Shown here: piece after piece, positions 5,406 through 64,000 of the stretch
How the letters are laid out: each line of letters starts with the position of its first letter
Numbering within the stretch: the stretch's first letter is position 1
From: a virus
Lineage: Duplodnaviria; Heunggongvirae; Uroviricota; Caudoviricetes
Virus record (IMG/VR): IMGVR_UViG_3300011904_000029
Location: 6,312-70,311 of that record
DNA length: 64,000 bases
Direction: 5' to 3' (one strand)
Translations under genes and position numbers: made by a program
The notes under the pieces: model-generated
Databases searched by the model: none
Seen by the model: the letters and a program-made list of their open reading frames with translations, nothing else
What the model was told of the DNA's origin: nothing

Positions 5406-6468
5406 GAGTATAGTTAATTGCGTTAGCTTGGAGAAAATCTGTTCTTGTTACAATTTCATCTTCTCCTCCTGTTCTCTTTTTGCTTCCATATGTAGCAATC
5501 CATCTTGACTTTAATTCTTGGTTTTCAGGATAAGGTTCTTCGAGTCCTGCGTTTCTACAGATTAAGTTGGCTAGATATTCCACGTAATCATGATATTCTT
5601 TAATGGATAAAGTATCTATTCCTTCAAAAATGTAACTAGCCCATACTTTTTCTCGTTTAACAGCCTCTTTTATATAATCCATAACATAATTATAATTATC
5701 TTTTGTGGCTAACTGCGGCTCTTCTTTCATTAGAATTTGAATCAGCATTCCATAAAAAGTCGAGTGCATATTTTCGTCAGTCCGAATCATAGAAATTAAG
5801 TTATTAGAGCCAATCATTTTTTGATCCCTTGCCAGAGAGTGGAAATAAACAAATCCCCCACTAAAATAAATTCCCTCTAAGACAAGGTTAGCTACGATTC
5901 CATAAAGAATATCTTGAAGTACCTCATTAGAAACTCCACCTTCATCTTGTTCAGCCATATATATCTTCGCAGCATCGACCATTTTTTGAATCGGATCAAT
6001 TACAAGTTGATTCCTATACACTAATTCAGGAATATTTCTTGTAAATTCAAATGCTTGCTCCTTCTCTTGTTGATTTAATACAGTGGACGTTAAGTATTGA
6101 TAACTTCGATTATGCAATTGTTCAAATGATGCAATCATAGAAATTACCGATCTAACTGATGAATCGGTGCATAAATAACCTAAAACAAAATTAAAGTCTG
6201 TTGCAATAGAATCTAACCAGTTTAATTTACCTGATATAATGTTATATACTTGTCTTTCTCTTGGCGTAAGTTTTTCTCTATACTCCTCAATATCCTTAGA
6301 CAGTTTCACCTCATCTTCTATCCAGTACTCTGCAAATAAAGACTTATTAAAATCGAGCATTGTAGGATACTTGATATTATCCCAATCTCGTATCCCACTT
6401 GATTTCCCCCCAAACACTTTTGTTGCTACGTTGCTTGCTTCTCCATCGTAAATCCGAAAGTTTGCCAT
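5377..6468 (-). CDS. nrdF: ribonucleotide reductase class Ib beta subunit
   Basis: 363 aa; diiron ligand region LVLEGIYFSGGF...IRTDENMHSTFYG, acidic C-terminus ...ESGEDFDL. Confidence 0.85.
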   Translation of the reverse strand: MANFRIYDGEASNVATKVFGGKSSGIRDWDNIKYPTMLDFNKSLFAEYWIEDEVKLSKDIEEYREKLTPRERQVYNIISGKLNWLDSIATDFNFVLGYLCTDSSVRSVISMIASFEQLHNRSYQYLTSTVLNQQEKEQAFEFTRNIPELVYRNQLVIDPIQKMVDAAKIYMAEQDEGGVSNEVLQDILYGIVANLVLEGIYFSGGFVYFHSLARDQKMIGSNNLISMIRTDENMHSTFYGMLIQILMKEEPQLATKDNYNYVMDYIKEAVKREKVWASYIFEGIDTLSIKEYHDYVEYLANLICRNAGLEEPYPENQELKSRWIATYGSKKRTGGEDEIVTRTDFLQANAINYTHESGEDFDL

Positions 6469-9925: not shown

Positions 9926-10228
9926 TTATAAAAATTTATTCTCTACTAGCTCCCTCATCCCAGATATGTAGTCCTCGTCTTCATTTTGGCTTAAATCACT
10001 CATTTCTCCATAAGCCTTAGCCATATCTTCTATGTCAAACTCTCTCTTCTCAACTCTTTCCACTGGAACATCTATCGACTCTAAATACTTTTCAATCATA
10101 TTCGTTATTCGCTCATCTAAGCCCCTAATTACATACTCATTCTCTTTGGCACGTCCAACAGTAACGCAAAATTTTCGATGTGTATATAATGACACATTGT
10201 TCACCTCATAAGATTTATTTTTCATCAC
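9926..10228 (-). CDS. hypothetical protein
   Basis: 100-aa ORF upstream of nrdE in same operon. Confidence 0.4.
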   Translation of the reverse strand: MMKNKSYEVNNVSLYTHRKFCVTVGRAKENEYVIRGLDERITNMIEKYLESIDVPVERVEKREFDIEDMAKAYGEMSDLSQNEDEDYISGMRELVENKFL

Positions 10229-33430: not shown

Positions 33431-33812
33431 TTATTTTATCCTTTAGGCTTTTGGGCAATTTGCTATTAATTTTTCTTATTCGCTTATCTCTGTTCATCAT
33501 CCAATCTTGTATCTCCATAGTTTCAAAATAGTCATTGGCATTTGGTATGAAGCCCAAATCTTCTAATATATGTTGCTCTCCAACATATCTAGTAAAAACA
33601 GTCCTACCATCAGAATTTATAAAAGACTCTCCAAAAATTTTTGCGCATTCAAAAATACCTTCTGAATGATGTCTCATGGCTCGATGTCTCATATCTGGAA
33701 TCCAAGCTTTTGTTACATCAAACCAATTATGGATTTCAATATAGTCTTTTGGCTGGCCTCCAAATCTTCTTGCAGAACTTTTAGCATGAATTTCTGGGTG
33801 TGACATTATCAC
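33423..33812 (-). CDS. hypothetical protein
   Basis: 129-aa ORF. Confidence 0.4.
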   Translation of the reverse strand: MIMSHPEIHAKSSARRFGGQPKDYIEIHNWFDVTKAWIPDMRHRAMRHHSEGIFECAKIFGESFINSDGRTVFTRYVGEQHILEDLGFIPNANDYFETMEIQDWMMNRDKRIRKINSKLPKSLKDKINV

Positions 33813-34425
33813 TCATCTCCTTTTTTACTATTATATGCTTCCAAGTCATACCGTTTTTAATTTGATAAAGCATAGATGGGGTAATATCGTGCTTTTTTCT
33901 TATCTCTTTGCTGCTAGCTCCGTTGAATATCATATTTTTTATGTCTATAACTTGTTCAGTAGTTAGTCTTGCCGTTGGATTATTCTCGCCTCTCGCTTTT
34001 TTACTTAGCATTTCCCTGTTTTCTTTTGTGTGAGTTTTCCCGTAAAAACTGTTATTTTCCCCAGCTTGAGATTTTCTTATTTTCTCTTTTGATTCTTTTG
34101 AGTGCTTATAATCAAGTAGCGAATATGAATTTGGTGCTAAATTGTATTTGTTCTTTATTTTGTCAAGAAAGTATTGCTCTCTTTGACTAAGCTCATCTTT
34201 ATCTTTAACTTCTTCGAGTATTTCGAATGTAAATGATGATTCGCCAAATTGATCAAAGTCTTGTTGAAGCGATCCGTTATGATGAACCCCTTTCCTCAAT
34301 GCCCACCTATGAGTTAACCATCTTTCATATGTGTCTACCGTGCTTCCTATGTAAACCATGTTATTTTCTTTGCATATAATTTGATATATTCCTAGTTTTC
34401 TCTCTGCTTTTTTAGTGATTGGCAT
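33781..34425 (-). CDS. GIY-YIG homing endonuclease (I-TevI-like, with NUMOD-type linker repeats and C-terminal HTH)
   Basis: 214 aa; GIYQIICKENNMVYIGST...YERW GIY-YIG core; repeated KxxxGExNxxYGKTH modules. Confidence 0.75.
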   Translation of the reverse strand: MPITKKAERKLGIYQIICKENNMVYIGSTVDTYERWLTHRWALRKGVHHNGSLQQDFDQFGESSFTFEILEEVKDKDELSQREQYFLDKIKNKYNLAPNSYSLLDYKHSKESKEKIRKSQAGENNSFYGKTHTKENREMLSKKARGENNPTARLTTEQVIDIKNMIFNGASSKEIRKKHDITPSMLYQIKNGMTWKHIIVKKEMSDNVTPRNSC

Positions 34426-41466: not shown

Positions 41467-42462
41467 TTACCCATATAATTTTTCGACATTTTTTTCATTT
41501 ACAAACTGTTTTATATATGCCGTATTGTAATAAGTGTAGTCCTTCACAGTTATGGGGCTTAAATTGTACTTAATTGCTATCTTTTCAAATTCTTCATATT
41601 CGATTTCATTTGAGAACCCTTTTTCTTTTTTATCTTGAAGCAGCTTATATGCCATATAAATCATCCCTGATCTTGTCAATGACTTTGGTGTTATATCTTG
41701 AAAGTCGAAAAGTTCCGCAATCATTTTTATTCTATTCAATATTGTTATCTGACTAACTCTTTCTCCTTCCTTAACTCTGCCTCTTCTAACGTTTTTAATT
41801 ACATAATCACTCTCAACGATCTGAGAAGTTGAAAATCTCCCTTCTTCAACTGTTCCATTCCTGTTTAAATATTCATCATTACTATAATGAGCCTGTCTTA
41901 TTAACTCAATAACATCGTCTTCAAAATAGACAAATCTTTCTCCTTTTACATCATCATATAATCTCACTTTCCCAGTTTCTTCTTCTACATCAGCCCATCT
42001 TAAGTTTCTTAACTCACTGCTCTCTGTGCCATAAACTCCCTCAAATAATAAACGTAAAACCACTCTATCTTGAATATTTACTAAGTTGTTATATATATAA
42101 TCGAGTTCCTGTTTTGAAATAAACTGCTTAATGTCTTTATCAATAAACTGTCTATACCATTCTCTGTCTAAATTCTGCATAGGATGAATGTTGCTTGTTC
42201 GTAAATTATTCTTAATAGCCCACGCTATATATTGTGAAATAAAATTTCCTCTTGTTACTGCTACATTTAACGATTTGGGGTTTGAGTTAGCAATTACAGA
42301 ACCAATTTGATCTAGTGAAAAATCATACAAATCTTTCCCTAAAGGGACTTCATTCCCATAGGCATAATAAAAAATATACTCTACAACGTTTCTTGTCGTT
42401 TCACTATCATAGGCATCATTTAAAAATCTTTTTTTGATATCTTCATTATACATTTTATGCAT
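41467..42462 (-). CDS. tyrosine-recombinase-fold protein with degenerate active site (YopR-like repressor candidate)
   Basis: 331 aa; box I-like VLRLLFEGVYGTESSELRNLRWADV retained but box II reads SLTRSG (His replaced by Ser). Confidence 0.45.
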   Translation of the reverse strand: MHKMYNEDIKKRFLNDAYDSETTRNVVEYIFYYAYGNEVPLGKDLYDFSLDQIGSVIANSNPKSLNVAVTRGNFISQYIAWAIKNNLRTSNIHPMQNLDREWYRQFIDKDIKQFISKQELDYIYNNLVNIQDRVVLRLLFEGVYGTESSELRNLRWADVEEETGKVRLYDDVKGERFVYFEDDVIELIRQAHYSNDEYLNRNGTVEEGRFSTSQIVESDYVIKNVRRGRVKEGERVSQITILNRIKMIAELFDFQDITPKSLTRSGMIYMAYKLLQDKKEKGFSNEIEYEEFEKIAIKYNLSPITVKDYTYYNTAYIKQFVNEKNVEKLYG

Positions 42463-42463
42463 A

Positions 42464-43828
42464 CTAAGATTTCACCATACCCTTTACGTCTATTTCTTTA
42501 AAGTAATTTGCAATATTTTTTCTTAATTGATTTGTGTCTCTTTCAATATTACCTTTCTCATTTAACACACCAATATCTTTCCATAATGGATTGTCTTTTG
42601 AGAAATCAATGCTCTTTACAACCTTTCTGATTTCTTTTGCTTTTATATCAGATTCATACATACGTCTTGCTATGACAATATATCCCACAAACACGTTATT
42701 GTCATTAATCAATGAATTCTTTCTTGTTTCTTCAACTTTAAAAATAAACTCGTCTTGATAAGACCCAATTAGCATATTGAAAAATTCAACAAGAAAATCT
42801 CCTACATCCGCTGCGTCTGCACGGGTATTCATGATAAATTCTTGATCTATTGTATCTGCCAACACGTTATACGAAACTAATTCGTTTGCAATTGTTCTTA
42901 CTCTATTCGTTTGAGAAATCCTACCCTCTAGATCGCTTTCCGTCTTAAGCTGCTGAACAACACTGTCCGAGTACCTTTTCGATTCCCACTCTTGAACTCT
43001 TACGGTAGAGATAGGGGTAGCTTTTGCTACCTGAGCCTGTTCAGCTCTAAATTTCTTTTTTGTAAAATTACTTATGACAACAATGAAGTCATGCTGAATA
43101 TCTTTGTTGTTCATCAAAGCGTTTCTAATGGCAGTAATTCTGTGAAACCCATCACCAATCGCAAGTTCAGTTCCTTTATTTATCTGTAATGTCTGATGCG
43201 TGGGATCATACTCTAATTCATTTCCGGTTTCACTACTTCTTACTAACGCATTCCAAACTAATGGAGGAGTTGTTTTTGCTAATGTTCCATTGATGAGATG
43301 TTGCTCAATTTCTCTTACATTTGTCATCATCAACTTTGGCTTTTTTCTTACTGTCCCATCTTTGCCCTTCACTAATACAGCCTCTCTTTGTAATTCGTAA
43401 TCGTAAATTAATAATTGATTTTCAACTAACTCATTAATAGTATGCATATCGATCCTTACAGAAAATACGCCATCTCCCTCTACTCTAGCGTTTTTCAAAA
43501 CTATAGGAAAGTCAACTTCTTCACGATAGACAGATGCATCATATGTTTTTGCTATATCTTTTTCAACATCAGTAAAATAATCACTTGGATTTATATTATA
43601 AGTAACGCCGCATTTTGCGTAAATCTGCTCAGTAATTAAATATAACTCCCTAATATCTAAATTAGATAGCGATTCTTTCGCATTACTGATCCATGTTTGA
43701 ACTTCTCCAGCTAATATATTGTGTTTGCTTACTAAGTGTAATTTAATATCATTAATAATTTTCTTATCTCTTTTAATAGCTTGGATAGCTTGAGTAAGAT
43801 TTTCTTCTAATAACTCTCTATCATTCAT
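42464..43828 (-). CDS. DGQHR-domain (DndB/ParB-like nuclease superfamily) protein
   Basis: 454 aa; motif ELAIGDGFHRITAIRNAL corresponds to the DGQHR signature of DndB-like proteins. Confidence 0.5.
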   Translation of the reverse strand: MNDRELLEENLTQAIQAIKRDKKIINDIKLHLVSKHNILAGEVQTWISNAKESLSNLDIRELYLITEQIYAKCGVTYNINPSDYFTDVEKDIAKTYDASVYREEVDFPIVLKNARVEGDGVFSVRIDMHTINELVENQLLIYDYELQREAVLVKGKDGTVRKKPKLMMTNVREIEQHLINGTLAKTTPPLVWNALVRSSETGNELEYDPTHQTLQINKGTELAIGDGFHRITAIRNALMNNKDIQHDFIVVISNFTKKKFRAEQAQVAKATPISTVRVQEWESKRYSDSVVQQLKTESDLEGRISQTNRVRTIANELVSYNVLADTIDQEFIMNTRADAADVGDFLVEFFNMLIGSYQDEFIFKVEETRKNSLINDNNVFVGYIVIARRMYESDIKAKEIRKVVKSIDFSKDNPLWKDIGVLNEKGNIERDTNQLRKNIANYFKEIDVKGMVKS

Positions 43829-43897
43829 CTATTTCACCTCATTTATATATTACATTAAGCAATGACACCTGTAAAACAGTTATTAATATAAATTTAT

Positions 43898-45400
43898 TTA
43901 CCCAATTTGATCATAGTCTTCTTTATACATCCATCTGTATCCACCAGCTGATTTTCGGCGACCTTGGCAAACTAGTGATATTCCATTAGCACTTTTCATA
44001 TTTAAATGCTTTCTTGCTTTTCCCATACTTTCCCATGATTTGATAAATCTTCCATCATGTGTCAGCTGAACAATTTCTTTTGATTTTATTAGCGCCCCTG
44101 TATTTTTCTTTGAATCATAATCACACCAACCGATTTTGGCTCCCTGTTTTAAGAATTTAATTGCTGTATTTCTTCCTATATTAAGTGTTTTAGATATCTT
44201 TAATGAGCACCTTACTCCCATATTCCATAAATCACTTGCATCTTTTACTAATGTTGAACAAGCAAATTCGTGACACTTTAACCACTCAATATTGGAAAAA
44301 TTGATTAGATTTATAATATCGCTATTTAGAATACCTACTTTTATCCAGTCTATATTTGAATATCTACAATCCAATACAATATAATTAGCAATTCCGTTTT
44401 CTTTAGCTAATTCTTTTTTTAATTTGTCGTTCTTTTTAACTTCAATTAGGCTACCTCCTTTAAATCCTTCTTCATAATGCTGTAACCCATGTGTCTCTAT
44501 TATCATATTTAAATCAGGAATATAAAAGTCATACCTCTTATATCCAACAATATCCTCATCTTTAAGTTTTACATTTTTTGACCAACTAAATATTTTCTGT
44601 GTTTCAAATTCCATGTTTAATTGCATGAATATGCCAATAACGAATTTTTCTGGATAACTAAATCCATCAGAACATCTTGAGCAGCTAAATCCTTGATTGA
44701 CAACATTATCTATAAATTTCATTTCTGAGTTACTACATTTTGGACAAGTAAACCTTAGTTTTCTTTGACTCCCTTTAGATACTTCATATCCTATGCGGGG
44801 ATCAGATAAAAGACTCGCTACATCAGGATTAGTCGCCCATAGGCAATTCGTATGATTTACTTTTTTTCCAGTACAATATGGGCAATTATTACCATTAACT
44901 TTATTAGCTATTGTCATGGAATATTCACTTTTGCATAATAAACAATTCCACTTATACTTGATTCCAGAAGACTTAAATATCTTGTCTGGCGTACAATCAT
45001 TTTTATTACTAAACTCAAGCAATATATAGTTTTTATTATTTTCTTTTACCCAATATTCTAAAGTGTGTTCATACGACATAATTTCTCTTTTAGTTATTTC
45101 GGCTTTTATACTACCACATCTTCTACACCTATCAATTCCATCTCCAGCTTGTCGACTTGAGATAATTTTAGAATAACTTTGATTCTTAATCACCTCATTA
45201 CAGTCATCACAAATCTTAGTAACCTTTACATTAGAATTTTTAGGTAGATCGCTGACGCTTATTAGTATTTTTGTATTAGGTGGAACTGTTAGTCTTCCTT
45301 GATTATTTTTACGTCTTGGTATGTGATACCCCAATAATTCATAATATTTATCAGTTTTTAATCCACATCTTACCCATATTTCTTTCTCTAATATAGCCAA
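43898..45400 (-). CDS. zinc-ribbon / PD-(D/E)XK-like homing endonuclease paralog (family 3 of 3) with C-terminal NUMOD1-like DNA-binding tail
   Basis: 500 aa; CxxC...GH repeats; YDFYIPDLNMIIETHGLQHYEE...KENGIANYIVLD nuclease block; C-terminal ...SAGGYRWMYKEDY. Confidence 0.55.
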   Translation of the reverse strand: MAILEKEIWVRCGLKTDKYYELLGYHIPRRKNNQGRLTVPPNTKILISVSDLPKNSNVKVTKICDDCNEVIKNQSYSKIISSRQAGDGIDRCRRCGSIKAEITKREIMSYEHTLEYWVKENNKNYILLEFSNKNDCTPDKIFKSSGIKYKWNCLLCKSEYSMTIANKVNGNNCPYCTGKKVNHTNCLWATNPDVASLLSDPRIGYEVSKGSQRKLRFTCPKCSNSEMKFIDNVVNQGFSCSRCSDGFSYPEKFVIGIFMQLNMEFETQKIFSWSKNVKLKDEDIVGYKRYDFYIPDLNMIIETHGLQHYEEGFKGGSLIEVKKNDKLKKELAKENGIANYIVLDCRYSNIDWIKVGILNSDIINLINFSNIEWLKCHEFACSTLVKDASDLWNMGVRCSLKISKTLNIGRNTAIKFLKQGAKIGWCDYDSKKNTGALIKSKEIVQLTHDGRFIKSWESMGKARKHLNMKSANGISLVCQGRRKSAGGYRWMYKEDYDQIG

Positions 45401-45424
45401 TATTACACCCCCTGTAAAACTTTT

Positions 45425-46465
45425 TCAGTCGCCTAATTGTGTCATTTCTTTTAGTTTTAAATTTAACAATAATATTTGATCCTTAGTAAGAGATGAAATG
45501 CCTTTCAACAACTCTTCATGAGAAACTTTTTTAAATAATTGATCATCAATATCACCCTTGCTAGACACAGCTCCCAATACACCCAAATCACGTTCGCCAA
45601 TATATATCAGCAGATTCTCCATATTCTTATGTCCAGAAGCCTTTTTTGCTTGTAGTAAGTCATTTGTCAAGCGATACTGGAACGTTACTCCGGCTTTACG
45701 AAATGAATGGAAGACCACATTTCTCTTATCTTCAAATTTTAATTGCCTTTTTATATAATTCATCATACTTTGAATTGAGGTATCACTTATATCAAATACT
45801 TTATTTGTACCTGATTCATTTTTTATTTGAACTAATTCTTCATAAAACTCTTTAGAGATTCTTAAATTCCTCTCTTCATTCCCCTTATCAACTGCCCTAA
45901 TCTCAACCTCATCATCATGTAAAATAAAATCATCCCAAGTCAAATTTAATAATGCACTTTTACGTAGGCATGTATCCATTGCAGTAAGGATTAGATAATA
46001 TTTTGTTAGACGCTTTCTACCTCTAGGTTGATTTTTTACTAGTTCTGCTGCCTGAAAAACCTCCTCAACTGTTAACACTCCATGATGATTTTTTCCTTCC
46101 TTAAGCCTATCTGCCTCATCAAATGCTGCCAGATTTTCTATATAACCTCTTCTATATAGCTGTCCATAAAATTGATTAACCGTTGAAATTTTCCTGTTTA
46201 TAGATTTATTTAATAATCCTCTGTCATTCTTTAGATAAATTTGAAACTTTACTATATCATCATCATTTAATTTAACATCATTTTTATTTAAAAATTCAAT
46301 TTCTTTTTTAGCTTTAAACTTAAAAAAATCTCTAATGTCGCTATCATAAGCTTCTCTTGTTTTTAGACTCTCACTTCTCATTGTTTTCTTTTCTAAGAAT
46401 AATATGATCTGTTCGTATATTTCTGATCGATTAATTTCAACGACCTCAGCCAACATTATAACCAC
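45425..46465 (-). CDS. tyrosine recombinase / integrase-family protein (catalytic residues intact)
   Basis: 346 aa; box I AMDTCLRKSALLNLTWDDF, box II VVFHSFRKAGVTFQYRL, GHKNMENLLIYIGE with candidate Tyr nucleophile. Confidence 0.65.
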   Translation of the reverse strand: MVIMLAEVVEINRSEIYEQIILFLEKKTMRSESLKTREAYDSDIRDFFKFKAKKEIEFLNKNDVKLNDDDIVKFQIYLKNDRGLLNKSINRKISTVNQFYGQLYRRGYIENLAAFDEADRLKEGKNHHGVLTVEEVFQAAELVKNQPRGRKRLTKYYLILTAMDTCLRKSALLNLTWDDFILHDDEVEIRAVDKGNEERNLRISKEFYEELVQIKNESGTNKVFDISDTSIQSMMNYIKRQLKFEDKRNVVFHSFRKAGVTFQYRLTNDLLQAKKASGHKNMENLLIYIGERDLGVLGAVSSKGDIDDQLFKKVSHEELLKGISSLTKDQILLLNLKLKEMTQLGD

Positions 46466-48003: not shown

Positions 48004-48546
48004 TTAGTTAATCTCACATGTTTTAGGGTGTAGTTTTGTTATTGTTCTATTTTTCTTCTTGGCATAATTTACACAGTTTGCTGTGCCACCCTTTGTTCCA
48101 TCCCAAACTGCTATAACATAATTAGAGTTATCCACCATCCACTTATTTCTCTCCTGCATACACCAGGGAGTGTATTCATCTTCTGATACATAATGGACTG
48201 TATCGGCCCTGTCTATTATTGATTGCCATTCATCTTGAGATTTTTTAGGCCATTTATTAGGGTGATTTTTACATGGAACTGCTGCAATCAGTTTAATATG
48301 AGGATATTTTTCCTTTAGTTTCAAAACAATTCTTGCTGCCCACATATCAATTCCTAATGCCATCCCAGAGATAAATGTATCAACATTATGTAACTCTATA
48401 TGATTAATAATTATTTCTCTAAGAGTGAACAGCATCTCTTTATTTCCTTCTGAAAACGGATCGTATCCATGTAATTTATTAGGTCTATGTCCAGTAAAAC
48501 AACAAACATACTCTCTTTCCAATATTGCAATCTCCTCCTCACACAT
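48004..48546 (-). CDS. DUF1273 / YpsA-YoqJ-like SLOG-family protein
   Basis: 180 aa; CCFTGHRPNKLHG, TFISGMALGIDMWAARIV and VIAVWDGTKGG align with the YpsA/YoqJ family pattern as recalled (ITGYKPFELG, ISGQLGVELWAAEAA). Confidence 0.5.
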   Translation of the reverse strand: MCEEEIAILEREYVCCFTGHRPNKLHGYDPFSEGNKEMLFTLREIIINHIELHNVDTFISGMALGIDMWAARIVLKLKEKYPHIKLIAAVPCKNHPNKWPKKSQDEWQSIIDRADTVHYVSEDEYTPWCMQERNKWMVDNSNYVIAVWDGTKGGTANCVNYAKKKNRTITKLHPKTCEIN

Positions 48547-48865: not shown

Positions 48866-49648
48866 TTAATCTTTATCAATCAATGCCTCTATCCCTTTGC
48901 TGGAAAGAATGCTATGTATAAACAGCCTGCCTTTTTGCGTCCACTTTGTGTTCATTCGTGAATTTCCATGCTTATCTACATGTGTATTTGACTTTGTATA
49001 TCCCTTGTCGGCATGTTCAGCGTATAATAACCATTGCTTACTAAGTTTATATTGAACTTTTTCATTATGTAAAATCTTATTGAGTTTTTGAGCAGTAAGT
49101 CCATAATCTTTTGCAATCTGACTAATAGTTATTGTTCCCTTGGATTTTAGTATCTCATCATAATATGTAACTTTAGGCTCATATTCTTTAACCTGCTGTT
49201 CAAGCATTAGCTTTTCAGTTTCTATACGTTTCTTCTCTTCTTGTTCTTTAATCCATTGCTTTGCTCGTTCGATTGGATCTTCAATCATGTACGAATGTAA
49301 AACTACGCCTTGTTTTAATGTTTTCTCCATTTCCTCAAACTTTGTAACGTAAGTAGCAGTGAATAAAATCCCTTTTTCTCCAGTTAATTTATTTGCTACC
49401 ATATCGCAGCCTTTTTTAGTCAATAGATAATGTGGCTTCTCTCTTTTATAACTATCTAAATATGTGCTTTCTTTGAAGAAATTAGATGGGTTCAATTTTG
49501 TACCCATGTTAGAATTAGTCAAATAACCAATATATGTTCTAATATCCCTCATTAAGATTTTGTGCTCTTTACCAACCATATCTGCAACTTCTCTACTATC
49601 CACTAACAACTGACCATTTCGCTCCATAATTTCTAATTCTTTTATCAT
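48866..49648 (-). CDS. phage regulatory protein Rha / antirepressor (Rha N-domain plus Ant C-domain)
   Basis: 260 aa; N-terminal RNGQLLVDSREVADMVGKEHKILMRDIRTY matches the Rha family signature. Confidence 0.55.
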   Translation of the reverse strand: MIKELEIMERNGQLLVDSREVADMVGKEHKILMRDIRTYIGYLTNSNMGTKLNPSNFFKESTYLDSYKREKPHYLLTKKGCDMVANKLTGEKGILFTATYVTKFEEMEKTLKQGVVLHSYMIEDPIERAKQWIKEQEEKKRIETEKLMLEQQVKEYEPKVTYYDEILKSKGTITISQIAKDYGLTAQKLNKILHNEKVQYKLSKQWLLYAEHADKGYTKSNTHVDKHGNSRMNTKWTQKGRLFIHSILSSKGIEALIDKD

Positions 49649-50102: not shown

Positions 50103-50927
50103 ATGTTTATTTCTCCTATGTTATTGCATAAATCCGATAAACCATTCGATAATGACTCCTGGATAACAGAACTTAAATTAGATGGATTTCGCTGTATATG
50201 GACAAAGTTTAATAACAAGGTCAAAATTTATACACGACACAACAATGAGATAACTGCATTATTCCCAGAGCTTCAATCACTTGATATCCCCGATGGCACT
50301 ATCCTTGATGGTGAATTAGTAGTAACAGATCATCAAGGGAAGCCAAACTTTGAATATCTCTTAGAACGTTTTAAATCAAAGAAGTCACAACACAAAATAA
50401 CATTTTGTCCATTTGATATAATTTATTTAAGTAATGATAATCTATGTAGACTTCCTCTTATTGAAAGGAAAGAAATTATAAATGAGCTAATACCAAAAGA
50501 CACGCAATTACTCACAAAAGTTAGTTGGTTAAGTGGTAATGGTATAGTTTATTTTGAACTAATTAAACAACACGATCTTGAGGGTATTGTCCTTAAGAAA
50601 GCAAATTCTACTTATCAAGTAAACAAACGATCACAAAATTGGATAAAAGTAATCAATTATAAATATGAAAATGTGCTTGTTTCCGGCTTACGAAGAGATA
50701 AATTTGGCCTTCTATTATGTTATGAGAATGGCAATTATGCTGGATTGTTAGAGTTCATGCCACCGCAAAACCGGAAACAATTTTATAGAGTCTATAGAGA
50801 TTGCACTATTAAGGAAGATGATAAGTATTTTTATTTAGACCCAAAAATTAAGATGAAAGTTAAGTTTCGCAATTATACAAGTAAAGGTTTGCTTAGAATT
50901 CCTAGTTTTGTGGAGTGGGTGTCATAG
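50103..50927 (+). CDS. ligB: ATP-dependent DNA ligase (minimal adenylation + OB domain type)
   Basis: 274 aa; motif I ELKLDGFR (KxDG), further nucleotidyltransferase motifs; GAGGTG RBS. Confidence 0.8.
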   Translation: MFISPMLLHKSDKPFDNDSWITELKLDGFRCIWTKFNNKVKIYTRHNNEITALFPELQSLDIPDGTILDGELVVTDHQGKPNFEYLLERFKSKKSQHKITFCPFDIIYLSNDNLCRLPLIERKEIINELIPKDTQLLTKVSWLSGNGIVYFELIKQHDLEGIVLKKANSTYQVNKRSQNWIKVINYKYENVLVSGLRRDKFGLLLCYENGNYAGLLEFMPPQNRKQFYRVYRDCTIKEDDKYFYLDPKIKMKVKFRNYTSKGLLRIPSFVEWVS

Positions 50928-51310: not shown

Positions 51311-52546
51311 TTATTTATAGTGACCACCAATTTTTGAAGCTCTTTCGGATGCTTGACCTGCTTTAGTTAATGACGATGCCCTATATAATGCTGTACGTCC
51401 GTATTTATCCCAAATTTCATCTAGTGCTGTATTCAGTTGCTCCCTATATGAATAGTTATCAAATAAATCAATCTGGTAGTTGTCTGCTGGCTGTAAGTTA
51501 GAAATACTCACACCTAAACTGCGTATTGGCTCTTTATTCCAAAACTTTAACAGTAATTTATAAGCTGCATTAAAAATATCTAGATCATAATTTGTTGGCA
51601 CTGATAAAGTAACTTGTCGATTAAATCCGGTTGGAAAATCAAAATCCGCACCTCTAACGCCACAAGAAATTGTTGTTCCCATGTATCCTTTCTTTCTACA
51701 TCTTCTAGCTACTTCAGTACATAGTTCTAATAGTACAACCTTAATTTCATCTAAATCCATATAATCTCTGGGCAAAGTCATATGATGGCCAACTGCTTTT
51801 TGTTGATTGTGCGTCTTAACAGTGACTGGCGAATAGTCGATACCGTTGGCTGTCTGCCATAATACCTCTCCATTAATGCCCCATCTTTTCTTCAGCAATT
51901 CAACTGGAAATTTAGCCAGTCCTCCAATTGTAAAGATGCCCATCCCGTTTAAATTACGTTTCATTCGTTTGCCTACACCAAACATTTTTTCTACTGGCAG
52001 CTTCCATAACTGGTCAATGTTGTTTTGATCTAGACGGAATATGCCTTCTTTGTTCTTTTTAGCAAAGTTATCACAAGCCATTTTTGCTAATATCTTATTT
52101 GATCCTATACCTACTCTGGCATATACTCCAGTATCATATAATATTTTTTCCTGAACTTTTTTAGCTATTTCAAACTGATTACCAAATAACTTTTGACTAC
52201 CAGTTACATCCATAAATTGTTCATCAATACTAAACTGCTCAACTAAATCAGTAAACTCTTCCATAATTTTGCTAATTTGCATAGAAACATTAATATATAA
52301 CTGCATATGAGGTTTAACTACCTCAACATTAGGACATTTCAATAAAGCAGATCCCAATGTTTCGGCTGTTGTGATGCCAAATTTCTTTGCAATTGGACAT
52401 GCAGCTAGGACTATGCCACTTCTACGCTCAGGGTCTCCCGCAACAATAACAGGCTTATCCTTTAATGAGTTATTATTAACTTTTTCAACTGAAGCATAGA
52501 ATGATTGCATATCAACTAAGAAAATCACTTTTTCTGCCAATGACAA
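51311..52546 (-). CDS. Y-family translesion DNA polymerase (UmuC/UvrX-like)
   Basis: 411 aa; N-terminal VIFLVDMQSFYASVE, FSIDEQFMDVTG, GVGKRMKRNLNGMGIFTIG motifs. Confidence 0.85.
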   Translation of the reverse strand: MSLAEKVIFLVDMQSFYASVEKVNNNSLKDKPVIVAGDPERRSGIVLAACPIAKKFGITTAETLGSALLKCPNVEVVKPHMQLYINVSMQISKIMEEFTDLVEQFSIDEQFMDVTGSQKLFGNQFEIAKKVQEKILYDTGVYARVGIGSNKILAKMACDNFAKKNKEGIFRLDQNNIDQLWKLPVEKMFGVGKRMKRNLNGMGIFTIGGLAKFPVELLKKRWGINGEVLWQTANGIDYSPVTVKTHNQQKAVGHHMTLPRDYMDLDEIKVVLLELCTEVARRCRKKGYMGTTISCGVRGADFDFPTGFNRQVTLSVPTNYDLDIFNAAYKLLLKFWNKEPIRSLGVSISNLQPADNYQIDLFDNYSYREQLNTALDEIWDKYGRTALYRASSLTKAGQASERASKIGGHYK

Positions 52547-53269: not shown

Positions 53270-53413
53270 TTACTCACCCTTTCTTTTATCAGTTTTATCA
53301 ACCGAACTTAAAAACTCTCTTATGTCATCTACACTCATCCCCAATTCTTTAGCAGTCACAATTAATTCATACCATTCCTGATCTAATTGTTCTCGCTGAG
53401 ATTCCAATTCCAC
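53270..53413 (-). CDS. SinI-like (Sin-domain) small protein
   Basis: about 46 aa from GTG/TTG after GGAGGTG RBS: ESQREQLDQEWYELIVTAKELGMSVDDIREFL resembles SinI LDQEWVELMVEAKEANISPEEIRKYL. Confidence 0.45.
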   Translation of the reverse strand: MELESQREQLDQEWYELIVTAKELGMSVDDIREFLSSVDKTDKRKGE

Positions 53414-55325: not shown

Positions 55326-55673
55326 TTATAACCCCTCTGCCATCCCCAGGCTTACCATAATAGCATTATCAACTTTATTCATTGTGAATTGATCCAAGGC
55401 GGTTATTTTGCCTTCTAATCGCTTCTTATCAATGGTTCTTATCTGCTCTAATAATACCACGGAATCTTTAGAAAGACCGTATCTTTTAGCATCTAATTCA
55501 ACATGAGTAGGCATCTTCGCTTTTTGTATTTGACTAGTCACAGCAGCAACAACGGTTGTTGGACTATAGTGGTTCCCAATATTATTTTGAATTACGAGTA
55601 CAGGTCTATATCCACCTTGTTCACTTCCTCTTGTAGGACTTAGATCTGCGAAGTAAATGTCACCTCTTTTCAC
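55326..55673 (-). CDS. mazF: MazF/EndoA (PemK-family) mRNA interferase toxin
   Basis: 115 aa from GTG; [66 protein letters not shown]... closely matches the Bacillus EndoA sequence as recalled. Confidence 0.85.
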
Positions 55674-61006: not shown

Positions 61007-63964
61007 TTAAACTACCTTCTGAGTATTCCATTGAATGTAGCTTTTGCCTTCTTCATCTTTTTCTTTAATTAGAAGCATGTTTAAAATATCAAAATCAACT
61101 CCAAACCTTTCTAAGATTTCATCATCATCTATGGAATCATTTTTCATAAAGTTGTTTAGTTTCTCTTTATTCATAATCAACTTAAGTAAATTAGACTCAA
61201 TACTGTTTCTAATTGTTAAAAAGTGTATTTCTTTTTGCTCTGTAGAGGTATATCTTATAAACCTTGCAAAAAACTGATGCATTGCTGCAAAGTTCCATTG
61301 TAGCTCAATAAGTAATACACGGTTCACAAAATCAATATTCATGCTGCTTGATAAAGATTGTTGAGTACAAATAAGTATTCCATTTTTTGTTTCTTTTAGT
61401 TTCTTTATTATCTCTTTTCTCTTGCTCAATGTTGTGCTGTCACCAGTAATTATAAACAATGGCCTTTCAGGGAATTTGTTTTTAATATAACTTGCATACA
61501 TATTAACTGTTTTAATGTGAGTACACCCTATTACAACATGCTCGTTATCCCATTCATGAAGCATATTAACCATTTCAATTGCTTTGGAAGGTGTTTGACT
61601 TGAATAGTAATCTTTAAAGATATTAGGTGTTACACATGCTTTTAACAGGCTGTTAAGTTGTTGTATAATCCTCAACAAAGCATCTTTTCTGCTGTTCCCT
61701 GTTGATCTGTACATATGAGTGAGTTTATAGAATTCTTCAATTACAATTCTATAAAGTTCTTTTTCAGCATGGTTAAACTCTGTTGTTTTCTGTATGATTT
61801 TATAAATATTCTTGCCGCTAACCTCTTCAAATGTTCGAGTTATCATTGTTTTATTAATTAGTTCGCTTAATTCTTCACTGTTATATATATCTTGATTCAT
61901 TTTCCCTACACCAAATACTGTTGCTTTCTCCGGTGAAAATGATCTTTTAAAATGTGTATGGCCTTTCTTATATGCAGGAAACGGCCACATATAAAATTTA
62001 TTAAATTCCTCCTTAATCTCTTTTGTCTTTTTATCCTCAATAAATATAATGTCATTCTTTGACAGCATATTAACTGAATTATTATAGAGCAATTCAAATG
62101 CTGTAAACGATTCTGGAATGTTATTTCTGGTACTTGTAGCACTCATAAGCAATTTAAACTTAACTCTTCTAAAACAGTTTAAAATGGCCTTTGTACGTTT
62201 AGATGATGGATTACAAATACCATCTGCTTCATCTAGTACCAACATAACTTTTTGACTTTGCATTTTTACAAACTTTTTAATTTGCTTTTGATATTTAGTT
62301 ATCATTCCAAAAGTCATAATTACTATTTGTCCATGTTTAATATTGTCAATATCTTTAAGTGATTTGATCCTAATAAAATCTATATCGTATGCCTTTAGAA
62401 TTTCGTCCCAATTGTTATTAATTGCAATTGCAGGTGCAATAAGGAATATATTTCTAATGCTGTTATGCTGCTTTCTATATAACATCTGTGCAATGGCCGA
62501 TAAACTTTTCCCTGCTCCTGTTCCCCATTGCAGATAACCATAATTTTTAGATAGCATTTTTATTGTATCTTCTTTTTGAATATTATTTAGTTTAATCTCC
62601 TGGCTATTTTCTTTATCATAAATCACCAAGTTTTCAAGAAAAGATTTTATTTTTTCGTCTTGTTTTATATTTTTAAATGAGCAATTCTGCTTCTGATATT
62701 CCTTGCTTTTCTTTTCAAATAATTTTATATACTTATGATCTTGAAAAGGATAGTTATCATTAATAATCATGTCATTAAAGCTTATCTCTTTGACTCCATT
62801 ATATGATTTTAAAAATTTTCTCTCCTTTGTGCTGTATGCTTTTAGCTTCAGACCATAGCGATTTTTTACAAGTCTTGTTATATGAACTTCTGGTTTTTTA
62901 TGCTGCTTTTTTAAAGTGTTTTTAAGATACCGAATAACTTTGTTTTTTGTTATCCTTACTTTCTGCCATTCCTCATAAGTCATTCCCTCTGGCTGCTCTT
63001 GTGTATAATACCTATTCAAATAGGCTTCACATTTAGAATAGTATTTATTGATTTTCGGATTACTCTTGATATCAAATAACAACTTATTTACTTTATAATG
63101 AAATTCATTTTCATCTTTATTTTGTGACATTGTTTCAAGAATAATTTTATTTTTAACTTGCTGCTTTTCATCAAGAATTGGTTTTATGTAATTGTTATAA
63201 ATATAATTTGATTCTGATTCAATTATTTCTAGCGATTTTATAGTATTGCTTTTATATGGCCTCTCTGTTACATGTTCGCTCTTTTTCTGGAAAAACATAA
63301 TCTTTGTTTCAAAATTATTGACCCCGACATGATTAAATGAGTCTGAAGGCAAAGTGAATTGTGACACAAAATTGAACATCTTATTAATCTCTGTTATCAT
63401 TCCACCGTCTACAAAGTCATCGCTTAGAAAGGATCTAGGTACAATTAATGCCATGATCCCACCAGGTTTTAATACTTCATATGATTTAATACAATAATAC
63501 AGTTGACTTAAATATTCATCATTTCCAACATCCCATTTTAAATTAAATGGTGGATTCCCTAAAACAATGTCAAACTGGATATCAGTTTTATAATTTCTAA
63601 TATCTTGATTTGTTATATTTGCATGTGGATATAAGTATTTTGAAACTTTATAAGCCTTTATATCTAATTCATTGCCATATACATTTAACTCGTTTGGAAG
63701 ATAGTTAAAAAAGTTACCCATCCCACTTGTTAAATCAATAATTAAATCATGCTCATTAGGTTTTAAACAGTCTATAAGAAATTTAGAAATTGTATGAGAT
63801 GTAAAGAATTGACCATTTTCTAATTCCTTTTTGGCTTCTGTATAATCATGAAAAGATGAATAGTCTTTAAAATCTAACCCATGCAGCCCACCATCACCAG
63901 TATAAGAATTAAATATATCCTCTTTTGAAATATTGTGTTGATCACATAAGTTATTATCAATCAA
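61007..63964 (-). CDS. N6-adenine DNA methyltransferase fused to SF2 (DEAD-box-type) helicase
   Basis: 985 aa; N-terminal amino-MTase motifs FFTSHTISKFLID, DLTSGMGNFF (motif I) and NPPFN (motif IV); C-terminal helicase motifs GTGAGKS (Walker A), LVLDEAD (motif II), LMSATS (motif III). Confidence 0.75.
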   Translation of the reverse strand: MIDNNLCDQHNISKEDIFNSYTGDGGLHGLDFKDYSSFHDYTEAKKELENGQFFTSHTISKFLIDCLKPNEHDLIIDLTSGMGNFFNYLPNELNVYGNELDIKAYKVSKYLYPHANITNQDIRNYKTDIQFDIVLGNPPFNLKWDVGNDEYLSQLYYCIKSYEVLKPGGIMALIVPRSFLSDDFVDGGMITEINKMFNFVSQFTLPSDSFNHVGVNNFETKIMFFQKKSEHVTERPYKSNTIKSLEIIESESNYIYNNYIKPILDEKQQVKNKIILETMSQNKDENEFHYKVNKLLFDIKSNPKINKYYSKCEAYLNRYYTQEQPEGMTYEEWQKVRITKNKVIRYLKNTLKKQHKKPEVHITRLVKNRYGLKLKAYSTKERKFLKSYNGVKEISFNDMIINDNYPFQDHKYIKLFEKKSKEYQKQNCSFKNIKQDEKIKSFLENLVIYDKENSQEIKLNNIQKEDTIKMLSKNYGYLQWGTGAGKSLSAIAQMLYRKQHNSIRNIFLIAPAIAINNNWDEILKAYDIDFIRIKSLKDIDNIKHGQIVIMTFGMITKYQKQIKKFVKMQSQKVMLVLDEADGICNPSSKRTKAILNCFRRVKFKLLMSATSTRNNIPESFTAFELLYNNSVNMLSKNDIIFIEDKKTKEIKEEFNKFYMWPFPAYKKGHTHFKRSFSPEKATVFGVGKMNQDIYNSEELSELINKTMITRTFEEVSGKNIYKIIQKTTEFNHAEKELYRIVIEEFYKLTHMYRSTGNSRKDALLRIIQQLNSLLKACVTPNIFKDYYSSQTPSKAIEMVNMLHEWDNEHVVIGCTHIKTVNMYASYIKNKFPERPLFIITGDSTTLSKRKEIIKKLKETKNGILICTQQSLSSSMNIDFVNRVLLIELQWNFAAMHQFFARFIRYTSTEQKEIHFLTIRNSIESNLLKLIMNKEKLNNFMKNDSIDDDEILERFGVDFDILNMLLIKEKDEEGKSYIQWNTQKVV

Positions 63965-64000
63965 ATATAAAATTTTATCGTTTATCTCCTTCCTGTTCTC

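Follow-up and report, generated by a model that had tools for sequence, protein, structure and literature searches.

The window analysed here, 64,000 nucleotides of a Caudoviricetes virus (positions 6,312 to 70,311 of IMG/VR record IMGVR_UViG_3300011904_000029), carries at its far end a large minus-strand gene for an adenine methyltransferase joined to a helicase-like motor, which raises the question of what such a fusion does for the element that encodes it. An earlier note on this DNA had read the product as an N6-adenine methyltransferase fused to a superfamily 2 (SF2) helicase in a DarB-like architecture, after DarB of phage P1. The answer developed below is that the protein is a stand-alone member of the 'DNA methylase-helicase dyads', not a DarB orthologue, and that its gene belongs to a two-gene cassette whose other half lies just beyond the window.

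The open reading frame (ORF) listing of the window contains, on the minus strand, an ORF of 985 codons at 61007..63964. Its TTG at 63964 is a window-edge artefact and not a start codon, because there is no in-frame stop over the following 36 bases, 63965-64000, which are in frame, stop-free and coding (ENRKEINDKILY). A protein search retrieved a database protein (P0001) of 1009 aa that is 100% identical to the ORF product; on its source contig (GCA_032100165.1, DAMDKB010000005.1; L003 below) the true start is an ATG eight bases past an AGGAGG ribosome-binding site and 36 nt outside window position 64000. The window edge cuts the ORF and therefore leaves the first 12 codons outside, and codons 13-24 (63965-64000) were omitted from the previously noted extent, 61007-63964. 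That ORF exists, but its 5′ end was wrong, cut by the window, and the real protein has 1009 residues, to which residue numbers refer here unless the 985-aa version is named. The ORF and every motif quoted for it before proved real when re-translated at exact coordinates: motif I, DLTSGMGNFF (63707-63736), and motif IV, NPPF (63545-63556), of the methyltransferase, and Walker A, GTGAGKS (62504-62524), motif II, DEAD (62222-62233), and motif III, MSATST (62129-62146), of the motor, to which we add motif VI, QFFARFIR (61253-61276). Motif III reads SAT in this protein and TGT or SGT, the SNF2-type form, in many family members.

Pfam searches matched N6_Mtase (7e-10, residues 45-293 of the 985-aa version), DEAD (5e-10), Helicase_C (5e-9) and also ResIII, and the profile phrog_24008, labelled 'helicase', aligned over its full length (E=0, 1426 bits; residues 2-984 against profile positions 26-1005 of 1006). 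Matches of this strength lie well outside chance. A profile built from 41 homologues of 49-100% identity was then compared with the sequences of the Protein Data Bank (PDB): the C-terminal half matched the Sulfolobus SWI2/SNF2 core (4e-18), Ino80, Snf2, Rad54 and ZorD, and the N-terminal part matched M.TaqI and the HsdM subunits of StySJI and EcoKI. An AlphaFold2 model computed from the 41-homologue alignment has a mean predicted local distance difference test score (pLDDT) of 85, and fold searches with this model placed ZorD among its structural neighbours. Profile and fold searches agree on a DNA methyltransferase for the N-terminal domain, as the earlier note had proposed, and we assign the methylase to the gamma class, HsdM/TaqI-like and DNA-directed, of the N6-adenine type. 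The description of the C-terminal half as an SF2 helicase can be sharpened: its helicase motifs are real, and because of the PDB profile matches together with the AlphaFold2 model and fold searches, the motor is specifically a SWI2/SNF2 double-strand DNA translocase and not a generic helicase.

From the N terminus, the predicted order of parts is an LPD36-like helical domain, the N6-adenine methyltransferase, a helical connector and the SWI2/SNF2 translocase (Table 1). The first domain carries the signature YTGDGG (GxGU; 63887-63904, residues 45-50), which lies between predicted helices 38-44 and 62-73 and is kept across the 41 homologues; its assignment to LPD36 was made by motif and secondary structure. 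The methyltransferase opens with the cap FFTS (63797-63808, residues 77-80), followed in the model by helix 81-91; the motif is FFTP in most of the 41 homologues, and FFTS in this protein and in 3 of them. Across the same homologues, every catalytic motif of the two enzymes is invariant or nearly so, and residues D101/G105/G107 and N161-P162-P163 of the methylase and G507/G509/K510, D602-E603-x-D605 and Q921/R925/R928 of the motor are invariant. The identities of the domains and the conservation of both catalytic centres are established. The connector, residues 263-480, gave no Pfam or PDB sequence match and could be assigned to no family or fold; its conservation, 0.565 against 0.65-0.69 elsewhere, is slightly lower, not hypervariable. 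Conservation is nearly uniform by region (0.57-0.69), with no hypervariable block resembling the target recognition domain (TRD) of type I, IIG and ISP enzymes.

Passages in section 14 of Iyer et al. (2017, J Bacteriol, PMC5512222) set out a module of phages, plasmids and conjugative elements that is named the 'DNA methylase-helicase dyad' and has P1 DarB as its archetype. In these passages the N-terminal LPD36 has about four helices and a GXGU motif between helices 2 and 3, the methylase is of an EcoKI/TaqI-like adenine type with a TP-capped N-terminal helix and an NPP(Y/F) motif, and the C terminus is a SWI2/SNF2 ATPase. All of the features so described are present in our protein: the GxGU signature, the capped helix, NPPF and the C-terminal SNF2 module.

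A conserved partner gene, just past the window edge, had been missed in the earlier note. The partner (P0121), of 274 aa in a family of roughly 270 aa and with an unmatched fold, is encoded directly upstream at window-equivalent positions ~64114-64938. It was first spotted in four Firmicute loci and then in six phage records, each time upstream and oriented alike. A partner-profile search over the 81 loci with enough upstream sequence found it adjoining the dyad gene in 79, and in 72 of the 81 it immediately precedes that gene on the same strand, the median gap being 13.5 nt. All-against-all clustering of neighbouring genes identified it as the sole universally conserved neighbour, the other neighbour families being lineage-specific. 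Pairwise identities of the partner track those of the enzyme (r=0.94), and the partner diverges faster, with a mean identity of 32% versus 51% for the enzyme. In Tenacibaculum phages, a partner homologue lies about 2.3 kb downstream and not directly upstream; the gene directly downstream in phage pT24, considered as a partner, proved not to be homologous, the weaker homologue being the one 2.3 kb further on.

An exhaustive profile search found the partner domain in 937 cluster representatives, always C-terminal where the protein is longer (500-1000 aa). Among these long forms, P0189 is fused to LPD29 and LPD25, and P0208 to LPD25 alone. Genes for LPD29 proteins also lie no more than 6 kb from the dyad gene in about 20 of 85 loci, L003 and most of the Bacteroidales loci among them, and the layout of LPD29 and DUF4942 neighbours resembles a polyvalent protein broken up into individual genes. 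At one locus, a SprT-like protein and the Thoeris inhibitor Tad4 are encoded near the dyad gene. The linkage and co-divergence of the partner, and the ties of the pair to the LPD domains of polyvalent proteins, are established. The literature searched, of which the supplementary LPD catalogue of Iyer et al. did not form part, holds no description of this linkage. The 77-nt spacer between partner and dyad gene, outside the window, contains before the ribosome-binding site an inverted repeat (ACAGGGC...GTCCCTGT, L003 ~9941-9977) with no T-run after it, which may be a processing or attenuation hairpin.

The family is large. At E ≤ 1e-10, a protein search brought up 1987 relatives; their length is conserved at ~1000 aa, and their sources include Bacillus, Lysinibacillus, Paenibacillus and Clostridium botulinum. 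In annotated phages, full-length relatives are encoded by Clostridium (C. botulinum) phage D-1873 (52%) and, at ~40%, by the lytic Tenacibaculum jumbo phages PTm1, PTm5 and pT24, as well as by contigs of human gut phages; in D-1873, an antirepressor gene comes directly after the methylase-SNF2 gene. A survey with one genome per GTDB species confirmed 155 loci, and the best 80 of these 155 fall in Bacilli, Clostridia (Lachnospiraceae, Oscillospiraceae), one Treponema metagenome-assembled genome (MAG) and many Bacteroidales, whose homologues are 38-39% identical over the full length. The family occurs widely, in phages as well as integrated elements, across Bacillota and Bacteroidota, and its confinement to mobile elements in these two phyla is established. 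In Bacteroidales, a DUF4121 protein always precedes the partner-dyad pair (L067:4133-4963 and equivalents, 17 loci). The trio at L067 abuts chromosomal housekeeping genes, which places the cassette at one end of an integrated element, an ICE or a prophage; in a Phocaeicola locus, the cassette lies within about 1.5 kb of hisB, rlmH and a glucosaminidase gene and sits at the edge of an integrated element. An Oscillospiraceae MAG carries a 1506-aa ORF (L057:1325-5845) that joins a RecD2-like helicase (OB, HHH, AAA_30) to a methylase-SNF2 part without its first ~130 residues, with no partner gene present; this reflects either a genuine alternative fusion or an artefact of assembly or frameshift.

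Near-identity searches of a phage collection with the DNA of the gene and of the replication block gave no match, and the element was therefore placed by protein similarity. On that basis, the window is assigned to the early/replication arm of an SPbeta-like temperate phage (prophage). Almost all of the genes lie on the minus strand; they include a RecJ-like YorK, 48% identical to that of Spbetavirus Goe12, and genes for DNA polymerase, a DnaB-type helicase, ribonucleotide reductase and homing endonucleases. Searches of the 64-kb window and of the 10 kb upstream brought up no structural genes. On L003, the LPD29 gene and then the DUF4942 gene are followed by small ORFs, a YonV homologue, two terminator-like hairpins and two promoter-like sites, each matching sigma-A at 11 of 12 positions, and then by three small ORFs, the 274-aa partner gene and the methylase-SNF2 gene. 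The dyad gene lies ~2.4 kb downstream of the yonV homologue and stands at the start of a long cluster that runs into the replication genes. In Goe12, yonV heads a long cluster diverging from the yonO late-RNA-polymerase cluster. Because Goe12 has no methylase-SNF2 gene after yonV, and SPbeta, phi3T and the Goe phages have no full-length homologue (in the phage collection and at the corresponding place), the dyad gene is best described as an accessory insertion near the start of a presumptive early cluster.

Table 1 Features of the dyad gene, the window and related loci (window positions unless a locus is named)
Feature	Coordinates	Strand	Remarks
Methyltransferase-SNF2 fusion, coding sequence, in-window part	61007..64000	-	codons 13-1009 of 1009; stop 61007-61009
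N-terminal helical domain, LPD36-like	63812..64000	-	residues 13-75 in window; AlphaFold2 secondary structure, motif conservation, DarB signature
Gamma-class N6-adenine DNA methyltransferase core	63251..63811	-	residues 76-262
Central connector	62597..63250	-	residues 263-480; made up of four long helices plus a small beta element (AlphaFold2 model)
SWI2/SNF2-type ATPase/translocase	61142..62596	-	residues 481-965; two RecA-like lobes with helical inserts
C-terminal tail	61010..61141	-	residues 966-1009; short helices plus a small beta sheet; W1003 and Q1006 conserved in family
MrpR/YopR-type repressor	41467-42462	-	part of SPbeta lysogeny-control trio (41467-46465)
DndB-domain YopQ-like protein	42464-43828	-	part of lysogeny-control trio
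HNH endonuclease ORF	43898-45400	-	within lysogeny-control trio
Tyrosine-recombinase-like YopP homologue	45425-46465	-	part of lysogeny-control trio
YpsA/SLOG-family (DprA-like) protein	48004-48546	-	early cluster
Rha/KilAC antirepressor	48866-49648	-	early cluster
ATP-dependent DNA ligase	50103-50927	+	sole large plus-strand ORF of the window
Y-family (IMS) polymerase, then YolD-like gene	51311-52546	-	
SinI-like small protein	~53270-53413	-	coordinates converted from L003
PemK-family toxin	~55326-55673	-	coordinates converted from L003
LPD29 protein, 615 aa	L003:753-2600		upstream of window; opens the same gene cluster together with the DUF4942 gene
Protein with methyltransferase-like N terminus and DUF4942, 535 aa	L003:2669-4276		upstream of window
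LPD29 proteins, examples	L005:14182-16017; L067:13558-14601		

Two further features of the window concern neither half of the cassette. Three minus-strand ORFs are of homing-endonuclease type (930-2576, 33781-34425 and 43898-45400), two of them HNH and one GIY-YIG/NUMOD3, which suggests intron or intein-less mobile insertions near the ribonucleotide reductase and repressor regions. Negative GC and AT skew, uniform elsewhere, is locally weakened in the 50-52 kb bin. The Y-family polymerase, YolD-like, SinI-like and PemK-family genes of Table 1 are scattered between small ORFs of the early region.

What, then, would the pair do for such an element? We consider counter-restriction by early-expressed, translocation-coupled adenine methylation the most likely function, and rate it at about an even chance. 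The enzyme would be made early, from the head of the long early gene cluster of the SPbeta-like phage, and would load together with the upstream-gene product on the element's own duplex DNA. ATP-driven SNF2 translocation could then carry the methylase along the DNA, depositing N6-methyladenine quickly and broadly, with a specificity that is probably fixed or low, since no TRD-like hypervariable segment is apparent. The motor may also push restriction or bacteriophage exclusion (BREX)-type complexes off the DNA, and the partner would assist loading, targeting or regulation. As a result, phage DNA that is just entering or newly replicated would be spared by host restriction. Translocation-coupled counter-restriction follows the proposal for the dyad in the retrieved passages of Iyer et al. 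(PMC5512222), and the neighbours of counter-defence or 'polyvalent' kind (LPD29, DUF4942/methyltransferase-like, SprT-like and Tad4) are consistent with it. From sequence, we infer the DNA substrate in vivo, its methylation and protection, early expression and binding of the partner.

Several points weigh against this function. Our literature searches found no study of this dyad family and no experiment on it, and the mechanism of DarB, with any role of methylation in it, is described as unresolved (EcoSal review, PMC12707154). The protein bears a weak, sub-threshold likeness to the defence proteins DrmD, DpdE and MAD2, and its cap motif is TS here, not TP. Promoter-like sites are not enriched in the sequence (63 versus 63.3 after shuffling), so that the promoter scan counts for little and early timing is read from gene position only. 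A bolder version, which we hold tentatively and think doubtful, is that partner and enzyme form a two-protein, early, trans-acting counter-defence machine of an uncharacterised kind. Here the fast-evolving partner would target or license the motor, directing it to element DNA or to host restriction or BREX complexes, and the enzyme would either 'paint' N6-methyladenine processively and largely independently of sequence, or evict the defence complexes.

Other explanations are less likely. [quoted passage not shown] The likenesses to DrmD, DpdE and MAD2, the place of ZorD among the structural neighbours, the frequency with which accessory regions of prophages hold defence genes and the PemK toxin nearby all fit such a system. 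We nevertheless judge it unlikely, as all model scores are far under their cut-offs: DrmD membership was rejected at 23.6 bits against 610 and MAD2 membership at 42.6 bits, over 39 residues, against 720, and the DpdE, generic methyltransferase and PADLOC matches were partial and far under threshold. Pfam, profile and fold searches found no nuclease or other effector domain in enzyme or partner, and no drmABC, pglZ or brxC-type neighbour is conserved, the partner alone being universal. The gene also occurs in lytic jumbo phages and has links to LPD domains and Tad4. If it were a true functional analogue of DarB, the protein would be packaged in the virion, perhaps with the partner, would enter the cell along with the DNA, and would shield that DNA in cis from type I or BREX-like systems, with or without methylation. 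The order LPD36-methyltransferase-SF2 and the N-terminal signature are common to DarB; the partner domain occurs in fusions with LPD29 and LPD25, LPD29 recurs nearby, and LPDs come from proteins proposed to be delivered with DNA. This explanation is still quite unlikely in our estimate: the gene stands in the early/replication arm, far from structural genes and preceded by sigma-A-like promoter matches, no relatives of darA, hdf, ddrA, ddrB or ulx are linked to it, and its product has half the length of DarB and resembles it, at 19% identity, in the methylase alone. The family is also found in integrated elements of Bacteroidales that possibly have no capsid.

That the protein serves the phage's own DNA metabolism, as a UvsW- or RapA-like SNF2 remodeller in recombination, replication restart or transcription, with the methylase acting in regulation or packaging control, would suit an SNF2 motor but seems very improbable. 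The gene is not conserved among SPbeta-like phages that have the same replication genes, it travels as a two-gene mobile cassette scattered over unrelated phages and integrated elements of two phyla, and the motor is always fused to an R-M-type methylase. Least credible to us is an action on RNA, as an N6-adenine RNA methyltransferase joined to a DEAD-box-like RNA helicase, which was raised by Pfam matches to MTS and DEAD and by some source names; the structural matches speak against it, and we give it hardly any weight. Counter-restriction by translocation-coupled methylation remains our preferred reading, and nothing found contradicts current expectations.

Comparative genomics had already revealed the dyad as a kind, and the present family is catalogued as PHROG 24008 and carries generic names at NCBI. 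Our analysis adds corrected gene boundaries, the SNF2 assignment, the LPD36 signature common to DarB, the SPbeta-like early-cluster context, and a near-universal partner that has an unmatched fold and occurs fused to LPDs. On phages and conjugative elements, methylase-SNF2 dyads rank with the commonest modules, and we know of no such dyad, P1 DarB included, with a demonstrated mechanism. The stand-alone form of ~1000 aa is compact, has intact active sites and a single, obligate-looking partner, and is abundant in Bacillus-type prophages and in elements of gut Clostridia and Bacteroidales; it is therefore easier to work with as a model than the giant virion proteins are. It opens the questions of whether translocation-coupled methylation protects DNA, against which defences, and what the partner contributes. 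If the two-protein machine is real, it would be a testable model of how DarB-type proteins act. For the annotation of the window, the result is an ordinary one: an accessory, probable counter-restriction gene in the early arm.

How does the cassette compare with systems already described? Set beside the retrieved passages of Iyer et al., it shares carriage on mobile elements and the proximity of LPD-domain proteins, and differs in three ways: the dyad makes up the whole 1009-aa protein and is not part of a giant polyvalent protein, its gene belongs to an early cluster and is not beside packaging or transfer genes, and it has a separate, strictly linked partner gene. Polyvalent proteins more generally differ in that only the dyad modules are in this chain, LPD-type domains sitting in separate neighbouring genes. 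Unlike the type ISP R-M enzymes LlaGI and LlaBIII, the protein shows no nuclease domain and no TRD-like variable region in the searches and the conservation profile, its domain order is reversed and its motor is of the SNF2 class, not type I HsdR-like. As to type I, ISP and III R-M systems, neither an endonuclease domain or subunit nor a conserved third gene was found near the pair. Class 1 DISARM shares the pairing of adenine methylase and SNF2 ATPase (DrmMI with DrmD) and the weak model matches, but the cassette has no DrmA, DrmB or DrmC neighbours, and it is carried by phages and integrated elements whereas DISARM occupies chromosomal defence islands.

P1 DarB has been known since 1987. Its sequence (taken from NC_005856) has the same order of domains, and both proteins are phage-encoded and share an N-terminal signature, GYTGEGG...EYYTP in DarB versus SYTGDGG...FFTS here. 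The likeness by BLASTP, in contrast, is 19% identity over 209 aa, in the methylase only (E 1e-8), the helicase region giving a non-significant E of 0.067 over 54 aa; the profile of this family covers only residues 89-275 of DarB, and the DarB-like phrog_10089 matches only residues 80-259 of our protein. DarB has 2255 aa with a long C-terminal extension, against 1009 aa here and ~1000 aa in the family, and reads NVPF where this family reads NPPF. DarB belongs to the virion head, acts in cis and requires DarA, Hdf, DdrA, DdrB and Ulx (PMC12707154), and the partner profile gave no match in P1 positions 1-30000, which hold the dar regions. In P1 the linked dar genes lie beside head-morphogenesis (portal) genes; the neighbours of the present gene are a yonV homologue, small early genes and those for the LPD29 and DUF4942 proteins. 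The 'DarB-like architecture' of the earlier note stands for domain order and N-terminal signature and falls for orthology, size, Dar partners and a late/virion context; as judged from these comparisons, 'DarB-like' describes the architecture only and carries no membership of the Dar system. The protein's own family is PHROG 24008, from which it shows no architectural difference and whose members include the putative helicase of Clostridium phage D-1873 (52%) and BPT24_034 of Tenacibaculum phage pT24 (40%), each similar over the whole length.

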